Shown: piece after piece, positions 7,542 to 12,706 of the stretch
Position numbering within the stretch: the first letter of the stretch is position 1
Layout: each line of letters opens with the position of its first letter
IMG/VR virus record: IMGVR_UViG_2706795806_000001
Location: 35,731-99,730 of that record
Direction: 5' to 3' (one strand)
DNA: 64,000 bases
Source: a virus
Lineage: Duplodnaviria > Caudoviricetes
Position numbers and translations under genes: made by a program
The notes under the pieces: generated by a model
Database searches by the model: none
Told to the model about the DNA's origin: nothing
What the model saw: the letters and a program-made list of their open reading frames with translations, nothing else

Positions 7542-7620
7542 ATATTCCCAGATATTCCTGAGAATCTGAACAAAAAGGCAAAACTTTTTGAAAGTTTTTG
7601 GATTATTTAGGGTGGTGTGG

Positions 7621-7650
7621 TTGACATAGGTTAGCCATCCACTATATAAT
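7621..7650 (+). promoter_or_regulatory. sigma70 promoter upstream of a candidate ncRNA
   Basis: TTGACA-N18-TATAAT with no convincing downstream ORF. Confidence 0.6.
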
Positions 7651-7690
7651 AGAACTCTTATGTAGTTTTAAACTTTAATTATTTACACAT

Positions 7691-7852
7691 CAATCAGTCG
7701 TAGGAGCATTTGCTATGAAGTTTTAATCTTTGGCTATATAGGTGGGAAGCTTCAGAAATAACTGGAACAAAGTGTCTAAGTGTTTCACCATCTTGATCGA
7801 GTTCATTGCATGGCTTCTGCTTTGAACAAGGAAGGCTTTCTATTGCTGATTG
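7691..7852 (+). ncRNA. candidate structured ncRNA (four-way junction)
   Basis: Closing stem CAATCAG/CTGATTG plus three internal hairpins with G-U pairs on the + strand. Confidence 0.5.
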
Positions 7853-8262
7853 TCTTCCTCCTTTCCTCTCTTCCACTCTCCCTGAAAAATTTTTGCAAGG
7901 CATGATGGATTTGAAATCTGAAACCATATACACCGTTTGTAGGTTTTTACAATCTTCACAAGAAATTACAATTAATCTGGAAGCAATTCATAAAAGTTAG
8001 AGAATTGCAATAGGAAATTACAAAAGATAATTATTTATTTTAATTGATTTTTATTTTTATTGTGGTATTCACACACGCCCACATATTAGAAAGAACAATA
8101 AACCTTGTCCGTTTCAGTGATTGCTATTATCTCAAGCCTTAAAAACATTGCATTAAAAAAGATTTCCTGAAAATTTTCCGAAAATTTAACATACAATTAT
8201 TTTAAAAAACAAAGACTTAACCAAAAGTTAAATATTATTTTTAATTATTTTTATCTAAGGTA

Positions 8263-8322
8263 TTGCAAAAATAATTTATTCCTATAGAATGGCATCCATA
8301 CCAAGCAAACAACTTAAAAGGT
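8263..8322 (+). promoter_or_regulatory. early promoter + conserved leader
   Basis: TTGCAA-N16-TAGAAT then ATACCAAGCAAACAACTTAAAAGG. Confidence 0.8.
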
Positions 8323-8329
8323 TATTAAC

Positions 8330-9007
8330 ATGAAAGCATTTAACTTTAAACATTCTTTTGAATATGACAACGACTTAGCACGTATTTACTTTGAAGACTT
8401 TGAACGTGAAACGTCTTTACTTCGATATGGTGTACGTGATTTTGATTATTATGTATTGTTCGCCACTGCTGAAGACAAGGACAAGAAATACTATAAAGTC
8501 TCTTCATTGCGTAAAATGAAGAAAACAGACCTATATGATCTTTGTGTGAACTTCGATCTAGTGGCATACTGGGAAGATGAAAAAGAGTATTTAAAGAAAG
8601 ATTTTATTGAAATGTTATTGACAATAGATAATGAGGCGTTCTATAATGGTCACTATGAAAACGTACCTTATCAAGATTTAGATAGCGATTTTGTAATTCG
8701 TGGGAACTGTCAAGGTGACTATGTAAAAATTAAATTAGTTGGAAAGTTTGAACCATACATGACAAGTCAGTATCTTGAACAAGTATTCTTTCAAACGCCT
8801 ATCTATTGCCGTGTATCTGTATTAGATGGCAACTATGAAGAGATTGAAGGACAAGACGAATTATATATTGATTCTTTTGTCAAAGACTTATATAATTTTG
8901 ACAAGTCGGAAGTGTTGGAAATTGTAAAGGATCAATATAAAGATGAATTATTTTTTATTGACCTATGCAACTATGTAGAAAACTGTTTTGCAAATGAACC
9001 AAAGTAA
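8330..9007 (+). CDS. acidic early protein, function unknown
   Basis: 225 aa, D/E/Y-rich, RGNCQGDY motif. Confidence 0.85.
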   Translation: MKAFNFKHSFEYDNDLARIYFEDFERETSLLRYGVRDFDYYVLFATAEDKDKKYYKVSSLRKMKKTDLYDLCVNFDLVAYWEDEKEYLKKDFIEMLLTIDNEAFYNGHYENVPYQDLDSDFVIRGNCQGDYVKIKLVGKFEPYMTSQYLEQVFFQTPIYCRVSVLDGNYEEIEGQDELYIDSFVKDLYNFDKSEVLEIVKDQYKDELFFIDLCNYVENCFANEPK

Positions 9008-9020
9008 GGAAAAAATTGAA

Positions 9021-9230
9021 ATGTCTTTAATTATTGTTACTCGTTACGCTCAAAAAAACAAAACTAGCAAGCTTTGTAAGCGTCACACTTTTAAACGTGG
9101 AAAGATTGACAGTGTTGATATTGAGCCAATCCCAGAAAGCACATTGAATGAATTATTGAAAGATAAAAACAATATTCACTTTGTAAATGTTGAGAAGTTA
9201 AGCGATTTAGATTTAAAAAGTTTAGATTAA
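9021..9230 (+). CDS. hypothetical early protein
   Basis: AAGGA RBS, ATG 9021. Confidence 0.75.
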   Translation: MSLIIVTRYAQKNKTSKLCKRHTFKRGKIDSVDIEPIPESTLNELLKDKNNIHFVNVEKLSDLDLKSLD

Positions 9231-9235
9231 CAATG

Positions 9236-9257
9236 AAGAGGCGCAAGCCTCTTTTTT
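9236..9257 (+). terminator. rho-independent terminator, possibly bidirectional
   Basis: AAGAGGC-GCAA-GCCTCTT followed by a T-run. Confidence 0.85.
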
Positions 9258-9339
9258 GTTGTCTTAATTTCCCTGAATGTCGCCCACCTCCTGCCCTTGA
9301 ACTCCAGTATCAACCTATTAGGCTTCGTCCCTGCTATAC
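9236..9339 (-). ncRNA. candidate CsrB/RsmZ-like GGA-repeat sRNA
   Basis: Minus-strand TTGTAT-N16-TATAAT (9372-9345); GC-rich body with CAGGGA, CTGGAG, CAGGAG, CAGGGA ending at the terminator hairpin. Confidence 0.45.
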
Positions 9340-9417
9340 ATACGATTATACAGACAAATAATATAAATACAAGTAAATATTTAAATTAATTTATTTTAAA
9401 AATAATTATAAAAAGAG

Positions 9418-9470
9418 TTGACACAATAGAAAAACACGCCCATAATGCACCACATAGACAAACAACATAT
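9418..9470 (+). promoter_or_regulatory. early promoter + leader
   Basis: TTGACA-N17-CATAAT then ATAGACAAACAAC. Confidence 0.8.
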
Positions 9471-9484
9471 AAAGAGTTAATCAA

Positions 9485-9793
9485 ATGATTAAGAAAGTAA
9501 CTAAACATTTTATTGTTTACTTAAATGAAGCTTTTCAAATTGTCTTTGCTCGTTGCAGAAAGACAGGTAAATTTGTCAAGCATTGCCTAGCATTGGCTGA
9601 ACTTGAGTTAGACAACAAATACAGTTGCATGACAGCATTATATATTTGTTTTATGGCTTTCTTTAATGGATGTGTTTTTATGTTAAATTCGTTTGACATT
9701 GAACAAATTGTATTGTTTAATATTGTGGCTTCACTAGCAATTTTATTCACTTTTTCTTTGTCGTTTATTAACGATGAATTAATTGAAAAATAA
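9485..9793 (+). CDS. early membrane protein
   Basis: RCRKTGKFVK basic motif followed by two TM helices. Confidence 0.75.
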   Translation: MIKKVTKHFIVYLNEAFQIVFARCRKTGKFVKHCLALAELELDNKYSCMTALYICFMAFFNGCVFMLNSFDIEQIVLFNIVASLAILFTFSLSFINDELIEK

Positions 9794-9806
9794 ATTAATT
9801 AAACGC

Positions 9807-9866
9807 TTGACACATTAACTTAATATCTGTACTATGAACCACATAGACAGCAAACAACTTAAAAGG
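9807..9866 (+). promoter_or_regulatory. early promoter + leader
   Basis: TTGACA-N17-TACTAT then ATAGACAGCAAACAACTTAAAAGG. Confidence 0.8.
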
Positions 9867-9875
9867 TATTACACC

Positions 9876-10229
9876 ATGTTAAACATGAACGCATTGAACA
9901 AAGCTTTAAATAACGCTAACTTATCAACTATTATTACAGTTGAAAGTATTGGAATTGAAAACTTTACAAGTGACAGAGGCAACATTATTGCCAATCAGTT
10001 TGAAATACTTATCAATGGTACAGATACACGCTATCGAGTTTTTCAAAGTTATGAAACAATCATAGCCGTTAAATGTGCAGGGCATACCGTACTAGACGAA
10101 AAAGCTTTAGAGTACAGCGCAACAACTCTAAAATATTTAAAGCTTTTCTTAGGTACTTGTGCAACAAAGAAAGAGTTATACAAACGTATTGATCAAGGCG
10201 ATTACTTGACAGCAGATTTAAACAAATAA
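9876..10229 (+). CDS. hypothetical early protein
   Basis: Start placed after the leader; FQSYETIIAV...YSATTLKYL motifs. Confidence 0.8.
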   Translation: MLNMNALNKALNNANLSTIITVESIGIENFTSDRGNIIANQFEILINGTDTRYRVFQSYETIIAVKCAGHTVLDEKALEYSATTLKYLKLFLGTCATKKELYKRIDQGDYLTADLNK

Positions 10230-12057: not shown

Positions 12058-12435
12058 ATGGGAAAGGTTGATATAATCAGAGCAAAGTTACAAGTTCAAA
12101 AGCATTATTTAGAAACTGCCAAGCAATTGGCTAATGATTTCGGTATTAACTTTGCTATTGAATTGTTAGAAAATGCAGAACATGAAGCAATGAACCTTTT
12201 AAATTCAATGGGTTATGATGTACACATAAATAACTTATATAAAGTGATTGAGATTGCTTATAATAAAGAGTTGTATTTAAATCGTTTTAAGTGTACTATT
12301 AACAGCAATGAGTTTTATATTATCTCCGATATCTATCATAATCAAATGATTATTAAGACTAAAAATTCTTGTATATTATGTGTTGTATTAGAAACTATTA
12401 ACGGTTATAATGCAGTTACTTTCGAAATGGATTGA
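12058..12435 (+). CDS. hypothetical early protein
   Basis: 125-aa ORF. Confidence 0.7.
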   Translation: MGKVDIIRAKLQVQKHYLETAKQLANDFGINFAIELLENAEHEAMNLLNSMGYDVHINNLYKVIEIAYNKELYLNRFKCTINSNEFYIISDIYHNQMIIKTKNSCILCVVLETINGYNAVTFEMD

Positions 12436-12441
12436 TTTATT

Positions 12442-12627
12442 ATGTTATATGTTATTGCTTTTCTATTTATTAATGTGAATGGTGATGAGTATTTAAATGT
12501 TATCGAAGAGCCATATTTTAAGACAGAAAAAGAGTGTAATATATTTGTTAAGAAAAACTATGTACAGCGTAAAGATTTAAAATTTTCTTGTGTACGTGAA
12601 GATTTAGTTAAAAAATCTTTTCAATAA
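12442..12627 (+). CDS. hypothetical early protein
   Basis: Hydrophobic N-terminus, FKTEKEC motif. Confidence 0.65.
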   Translation: MLYVIAFLFINVNGDEYLNVIEEPYFKTEKECNIFVKKNYVQRKDLKFSCVREDLVKKSFQ

Positions 12628-12631
12628 AAGC

Positions 12632-12681
12632 TTGCTTTTAGCATGAATTTAAAGTTATAATGAGTTCATGCAATAAAGCAA
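12632..12681 (+). promoter_or_regulatory. hairpin-promoter element copy 3
   Basis: TTGCTTTTAGCATGAATTT...TATAAT-GAGTTCATGCAATAAAGCAA. Confidence 0.75.
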
Positions 12682-12706
12682 ACAAACAACTTAAAAGGCT
12701 TGCACC

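Follow-up and report, generated by a model that had tools for sequence, protein, structure and literature searches.

The locus analysed here raises the question of what a short, comparatively G+C-rich stretch of non-coding DNA does in the gap between two early genes of a phage. A first-pass annotation, made from the letters of one sequence, had assigned to its minus strand a CsrB/RsmZ-like small RNA that would act as a decoy for the host protein CsrA and so reprogram host translation early in infection. Comparison with related phages brought out a different property, namely the conservation of positions 9276–9357, which is a more-than-chance feature and was invisible from those letters alone.

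The window, i.e. the whole 64-kb stretch of DNA that was analysed, is the last part of a 99,730-base virus record. Its source is probably Acibel004, a 99.7-kb Acinetobacter myovirus. Acibel004 was described as an A. baumannii myovirus with 22 tRNAs and with genes for a ribose-phosphate pyrophosphokinase and a nicotinamide phosphoribosyltransferase, and its early region is dense in sigma-70 promoters with a common leader motif (PMC4128745). The window matches this published description, as judged by a tRNA scan, a promoter and terminator scan, gene annotation, and comparison of the leaders. At the protein level, the closest named relatives are the Acinetobacter Saclayvirus phages. The near-full-length assemblies behind relatives L002 and L003 (95.9 kb and 94.6 kb), which are independent of each other, both stop ~3 kb downstream of the locus, at about window positions 12300–12700, and these breaks may mark a physical genome end or the boundary of a terminal repeat. 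The genome ends of Acibel004 could not be determined in the original study (PMC4128745).

The unit in question is placed in a 254-nt gap that separates two plus-strand early genes, and all genes around the gap run on the plus strand. The gap also contains the intrinsic terminator of the upstream gene, at 9235–9254 with a T-run behind it, and the strong promoter of the downstream gene. The G+C content of the unit is 0.40–0.43 as compared with 0.19–0.30 on either side, in agreement with the first-pass description of a GC-rich unit in AT-rich DNA. The features to which the text refers are as follows (window coordinates).

9021–9230, plus strand: upstream early gene, 69 aa; many relatives have an unrelated-looking allele of 65 aa instead
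About 9236–9253, plus strand: terminator hairpin of the upstream gene, possibly bidirectional (terminator scan)
9258–9275, no strand assigned: hypervariable linker of 18 nt between block and hairpin (haplotype comparison)
9276–9357, no strand assigned: invariant non-coding block of 82 nt, G-rich on the minus strand and C-rich on the plus strand
9276–9337, minus strand: predicted conserved body of the putative small RNA (spacing from the −10 hexamer, leader comparison)
9345–9350, minus strand: consensus −10 hexamer TATAAT within the invariant block, identical in all haplotypes covering it
9367–9372, minus strand: −35-like hexamer TTGTAT, 16 nt upstream of the −10 hexamer; TTGCAT in all relatives
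9418–9446, plus strand: strong early promoter TTGACA-17-CATAAT of the downstream cassette (promoter scan, leader comparison, profile)
9485–9793, plus strand: downstream early gene, 102 aa, hypothetical, confined to this phage lineage

Conservation and reading frames

Relatives were found through the exact sequences of the flanking proteins and through the members of the cluster to which the 102-aa protein belongs. This yielded ~20 contigs, which came from assemblies of isolates and of wastewater or metagenomes, and they gave nine haplotypes of the unit, the window included. All relatives are close (at least ~88% identical), and the argument from conservation thus draws on a single shallow clade.

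When four haplotypes were aligned over 5.7 kb, positions 9276–9357 formed the second-longest invariant run, the longest being a plus-strand promoter with its leader. In the neighbouring genes of the same four haplotypes, 29.5% of third, 8.7% of first and 3.9% of second codon positions are variable. In the block, one column of 83 is variable, and it is located at the block edge. If columns changed at the third-position rate, the probability that 82 of them would all be invariant is ~4e-13. Across the nine haplotypes, the block showed 95–100% identity (six relatives compared pairwise with the window), as against 88–95% for most of the flanking coding DNA. The 82 invariant columns and the identity higher than that of flanking coding DNA indicate that, as judged from these alignments, the block is under nucleotide-level purifying selection. 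Conservation extends from the block into the next promoter and leader.

The linker on the other side of the block behaves differently. Seven of its 18 columns vary in the four haplotypes, which is approximately the neutral rate, and eight versions, 1-nt indels included, occur among the nine haplotypes, making it far more variable than its surroundings. The 69-aa and 65-aa alleles of the upstream gene (window 9021–9230, L002, L012–L016, L018, and L020–L022) are hardly alignable with each other, and either of them is found with differing linker versions, which points to frequent recombination at the joint. In L008–L011, an insertion of 133 nt with a 43-aa ORF, whose product has a hydrophobic N-terminus, separates the conserved leader from the start of the 102-aa gene (window 9484/9485).

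A protein-coding basis for the conservation, either as a tiny minus-strand gene or as the decayed 3′ end of one, is hardly probable. One minus-strand frame, alone among the six, does score positive on codons once two stops are skipped; it favours G at position 1 and closes with TAA, TGA or TAG at the block edge in most haplotypes, ~20 nt before the hairpin. However, the same frame contains two in-frame stops with no start codon to follow, and its codon score was equalled by 18% of shuffles. Moreover, ~30% variation at third positions would be expected in a coding sequence and none is found in the block; constraint at the protein level is therefore unlikely. Two further ORFs were considered, a 42-aa one on the plus strand and a 28-aa one on the minus strand; neither has a ribosome-binding site, and indels interrupt both in several haplotypes. 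The former (9233–9361) was rejected as it crosses the terminator and is disrupted in three haplotypes, and the latter, which starts with TTG, as it has a bad codon score and is cut by indels. The 7-codon ORF reported at first pass does exist, with its ATG at 9341–9339 and two stop codons at its end. Gene callers called no ORF at the block in any of the ~20 contigs. On the sequences compared, the block is thus without a usable reading frame, since each frame either is closed or is interrupted in some of the haplotypes.

GGA motifs and the CsrA proposal

CsrB/CsrC and RsmX/RsmY/RsmZ RNAs (Rfam families RF00018, RF00084, RF00195, and RF00166) resemble the unit in being short, non-coding and equipped with GGA motifs, in a host lineage that has CsrA. 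The four minus-strand GGA motifs from which the first-pass annotation started are present in the window as follows.

9328–9330, minus strand: GGA motif 1, in CAGGGAC, invariant
9303–9305, minus strand: GGA motif 2, in CTGGAGT, invariant
9289–9291, minus strand: GGA motif 3, within the perfect Shine-Dalgarno-like 8-mer AGGAGGTG; missing from L007, displaced in L022
9270–9272, minus strand: GGA motif 4, in CAGGGAA, not conserved

Among the relatives, motifs 1 and 2 are thus unchanged, motif 3 is intact in all but two haplotypes, and motif 4 is mostly lacking. The CAGGGA of motif 4 was found in two of the nine haplotypes (the window and L019), and the corresponding position elsewhere has TAAGAA, TGAGAA, TAGAGA or TATAGA. 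Folding did not reliably put motif 4 into a hairpin loop either, and the first-pass picture of it as an ATT-CAGGGA-AAT loop did not stand. The same applies to the other motifs: on folding, none of the four was reliably located in a hairpin loop, their placement shifts between haplotypes, and none has the GGAUG context.

The number of motifs is at the level expected from composition (P = 0.35–0.45). The 62-nt core has three GGA as compared with a mean of 2.4 in shuffles (P = 0.45), and a stretch of 102 nt has four as compared with 3.3 (P = 0.42), so that a shuffled unit reaches the observed count in 35–45% of trials. In the 99.7-kb genome, four GGA per 100 nt occur at 114 loci and three per 70 nt at 204 loci. 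A purine tract on the minus strand at 7850–7895 of the window, which has five GGA in ~40 nt, is denser in this motif than the unit itself, and GGA tracts thus arise by composition in this phage. This tract lies inside a 79-aa minus-strand ORF (7694–7933), which is uncalled in the relatives, within the non-coding gap 7542–8329. Finally, positions of the block outside the GGA show the same invariance as the motifs; hence the constraint is not centred on the motifs.

A search of 8500–10200 with cmscan on both strands at E ≤ 10 gave four chance matches to microRNA models and none to a Csr or Rsm model. As a positive control, sub-threshold RsmZ-like matches from genomes of the bacterial family of the host were used. 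These RNAs have 5–9 GGA per 110–174 nt, mostly as GGAUG, and clear hairpins present several of these in their loops. The RNAs are closed by strong terminators with a U-tail and fold with −34 to −59 kcal/mol, as compared with about −20 kcal/mol for the phage unit, most of which is due to the terminator. The unit differs from the known CsrB/RsmZ RNAs in the same respects, having three conserved GGA, no GGAUG, no presentation in hairpins, no U-tail, and no match to a model. The control RNAs themselves (L119 at G039:C185:6251-6876, L120 and L121) score 30–34 bits with an Rfam gathering score of 44, and are probably uncurated Csr/Rsm sponges; one host-family genome carries two RsmZ-like RNAs in tandem.

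A minus-strand RNA whose GGA motifs serve to titrate host CsrA is, on this evidence, very improbable. In its favour, 117 of 121 genomes in a sample of the bacterial family of the host encode CsrA (PF02599 over the cut-off), which is near-universal there, so that a target for a decoy exists; one of these genomes, G058, is unpublished, and the finding holds without it. Motifs 1 and 2 do not vary and motif 3 hardly does, and as the core is predicted to be single-stranded, the motifs would be accessible. One of the conserved motifs, CAGGGA, fits CARGGA, the core of the CsrA SELEX consensus, and CsrA can be bound by small RNAs that carry few GGA sites, E. coli McaS being an example. Against these points stand the composition-level count, matched at 114–204 other loci of the genome, the lack of GGAUG and of reliable loop placement that sets the unit apart from the host-family RNAs, the non-conserved fourth motif, the lack of a Csr/Rsm match in Rfam at E ≤ 10, and the equal invariance of the rest of the block. 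Only the presence of CsrA in the host family speaks for the decoy as originally proposed, and by any feature testable here the unit does not appear to be a CsrB/RsmZ-type sponge. No description of a phage-encoded CsrA sponge was found in the literature. The label of a phage CsrA sponge should not be applied to the locus, which should henceforth be treated as a strongly conserved non-coding element and no more.

Promoter-like site, terminator and structure

The minus-strand TTGTAT-N16-TATAAT recorded at first pass is present, at 9372–9367 and 9350–9345. Its −35 hexamer matches the consensus at three of six bases, and only the TTG is kept among the relatives. Sites of the form TTGnnn-N16-18-TATAAT number 25 in the genome as compared with 6.6 ± 3.0 expected, 21 of them on the plus strand and four on the minus strand. 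Two of these four head a minus-strand gene cluster, and one is the site at 9372–9345. A profile derived from seven early promoters of the phage recovered all seven but not the minus-strand site. A shared AT-rich 14-mer upstream is accounted for by a near-palindromic upstream element that belongs to the neighbouring plus-strand promoter.

Base composition gives an indication of the strand. Sense strands of this phage are G-rich, and over the whole genome G-rich 70-nt windows track gene orientation almost perfectly. The block holds the most C-rich 70-nt plus-strand stretch of the genome, with up to 27 C against 10 G; hence it resembles a sense sequence on the minus strand. In L007, which is among the more divergent lineages, the promoter spacer is shortened by a 9-nt deletion, and this occurs together with several changes in the core (one contig, 1.5x coverage). 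L007 may thus represent a decaying copy, as would be expected if promoter and core form one unit.

The hairpin between the upstream gene and the linker was listed by the terminator scan on both strands. Its plus-strand version has eight pairs and is followed by a T-run; its minus-strand version has seven pairs and a poor tail, the sequence that follows (CATTGTT...) being U-poor. The terminator that the first-pass annotation took to be shared by both strands is accordingly there as a hairpin, at 9253–9236, but its T-run belongs to the plus strand only. A variant in L008–L011 and L005 forms a G-U pair in the plus-strand RNA and an A-C mismatch in the minus-strand RNA, which suggests that the hairpin is maintained first of all as the plus-strand terminator.

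On folding, the whole unit, terminator included, was no more stable than shuffles (z = −0.46), and the minus-strand core was less structured than shuffles (z = +1.5). Likewise, the plus-strand block has a minimum free energy of −4.6 kcal/mol (z = +1.4 relative to shuffles). RNAalifold on the nine haplotypes gave 27 pairs, none of them with a compensatory change, and ARAGORN found no tRNA or tmRNA at the unit. A CRISPR-repeat mimic, i.e. an RNA anti-CRISPR, was rejected as the block has no repeat hairpin, and an R-loop replication origin as nothing but the G-rich transcript would support it.

The search for homologues was equally negative. No copy of the unit was found among GenBank phages by blastn, nor outside the lineage in IMG/VR, JGI metagenomes and GTDB genomes by exact words. 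The related Saclayvirus phiAbaA1 lacks the unit and shares with it AT-rich promoter similarity only, and 401 genomes of the host family gave only short chance matches in unrelated contexts. Neither the phage genome, on both strands, nor the shared early leaders contained a target exceeding shuffled controls. Pairing of the core with the leaders was no better than that of shuffles (P = 0.2). The best non-self duplex of the core in the phage genome (−51.9 kcal/mol, as compared with −43 to −47 kcal/mol for shuffles) was discarded as it is antisense within a gene for a 2216-aa protein.

Competing explanations and meaning for phage biology

What is directly supported at this locus is purifying selection at the nucleotide level, the absence of a usable ORF, signals resembling a promoter and a terminator, and a lack of structure. 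The stretch would be a functional non-coding element, and the likeliest explanation, put forward tentatively, is that it is a small RNA gene of ~100 nt, expressed early from the minus strand. The order of promoter, invariant 60-nt body, neutral linker and hairpin would correspond to the layout of a small RNA gene. Moderate indirect support for a small non-coding RNA gene on the minus strand comes from the constrained block, its lack of an ORF, and its position between a TTGnnn-N16-TATAAT site and a hairpin.

For the putative RNA we infer transcription, strand, start and end, and a binding partner as follows. Host sigma-70 RNA polymerase would transcribe leftward, i.e. on the minus strand, early in infection from TTG(C/T)AT-N16-TATAAT. 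The plus-strand early leaders of the phage start 6–7 nt past the −10 hexamer with (C)ATAG or (C)ATAC, and by analogy the RNA would start near 9337, which would leave the ATG of the mini-ORF outside the RNA. It would end at or just beyond the hairpin that is shared with the converging plus-strand gene, and the 18-nt linker before the hairpin would be a neutral spacer. The working part would be the invariant, purine-rich and unusually unstructured 5′ 60 nt. Being purine-rich and less structured than shuffles, this part would lend itself, as a single strand, to contacts with a protein or a pyrimidine-rich RNA, and its partner may accordingly be a pyrimidine-rich mRNA segment or an RNA-binding protein. 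Several observations count against this explanation. The −35 hexamer is weak and the early-promoter profile misses the site; the U-run of the hairpin is on the plus strand only, and one hairpin variant weakens the minus-strand RNA alone; and no supported secondary structure, covariation, or target beyond shuffled controls was found. Moreover, the layout can equally be read from the plus strand as a terminator, a neutral spacer, a conserved block and the next promoter.

Two alternatives to a minus-strand small RNA make use of this other reading of the layout or of the DNA itself. The element may act at the DNA level, either as a protein-binding platform that controls the early cassette or as a module boundary beside the terminator stem-loop and the promoter, at which homologous recombination would swap adjacent early genes as in the PeSL cassettes of T4-type phages; this is considered unlikely. 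The block does lie at the exact point where gene content changes, with the 69-aa and 65-aa alleles and freely recombining linkers on one side and the 43-aa ORF insertion of L008–L011 on the other, and its conservation runs on through the next promoter and leader. Joints of promoter and stem-loop of the PeSL type are on record and resemble the locus in combining a conserved non-coding joint, a stem-loop with an early promoter, and exchange of small genes among close relatives (PMC2839356, PMC4122927). However, PeSLs are dispersed repeats, whereas the G-rich block is single-copy in the genome and only the promoter and leader parts of the early cassettes are repeated. The block also lacks the internal repeats or palindromes typical of protein-binding arrays and, at ~60–140 nt upstream of the −35 hexamer of the next promoter, is remote for the site of a classical activator. 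A role as a recombination substrate alone cannot account for conservation stricter than that of second codon positions.

On the plus strand, the block may serve as a rut-like tract for loading of Rho, giving a back-up Rho-dependent stop that would insulate the next early promoter from read-through; this is quite improbable. Rho-dependent terminators with rut sites, such as lambda tR1 and trp t′, likewise have a C-rich, G-poor and unstructured tract of ~70–80 nt downstream in the direction of transcription, and in the trp operon of E. coli an intrinsic terminator (trp t) is followed by a Rho-dependent one (trp t′). The C content of the block, the highest in the genome, its folding worse than that of shuffles, its beginning ~20 nt past the T-run of the terminator, and a direction shared with all neighbouring genes are consistent with such a role. 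Rut sites, however, are not sequence-specific; they are degenerate and tolerate substitution, whereas the sequence of the block is invariant, and invariance over 82 nt goes far beyond what a rut role needs. In addition, the other early cassettes of the phage are without a comparable C-rich tract.

For the preferred small RNA, the nearest known counterpart is sRNA1 of PAK_P3, a therapeutic Pseudomonas myovirus in which an abundant RNA of ~100 nt arises from a 200-bp gap between hypothetical genes (PMC4933390). The likeness consists in a size of ~100 nt, a gap of ~200–250 bp between hypothetical genes, and the absence of an ORF. The PAK_P3 RNA was seen by RNA-seq and is late and G+C-rich, whereas the unit described here is known from sequence alone, belongs to an early region and is unstructured. 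As read from its printed sequence, without folding, the PAK_P3 RNA appears to contain a hairpin, and on reading no similarity was found between its published sequence and the unit.

A bolder proposal, regarded as a long shot, is that a strictly lytic therapeutic phage produces an early, unstructured decoy RNA of ~100 nt, which would titrate CsrA by means of its three conserved GGA or the 30S subunit by means of its perfect 8-nt Shine-Dalgarno mimic. If true, such a decoy of CsrA or 30S would redirect the translation of the host within minutes of infection. No RNA biology was found in the literature for this phage group. If the unit is transcribed, it would represent a small RNA in an A. baumannii phage that belongs to a clinical cocktail, and action of the early region on the host bears on phage therapy and on new routes to shutting down A. 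baumannii.
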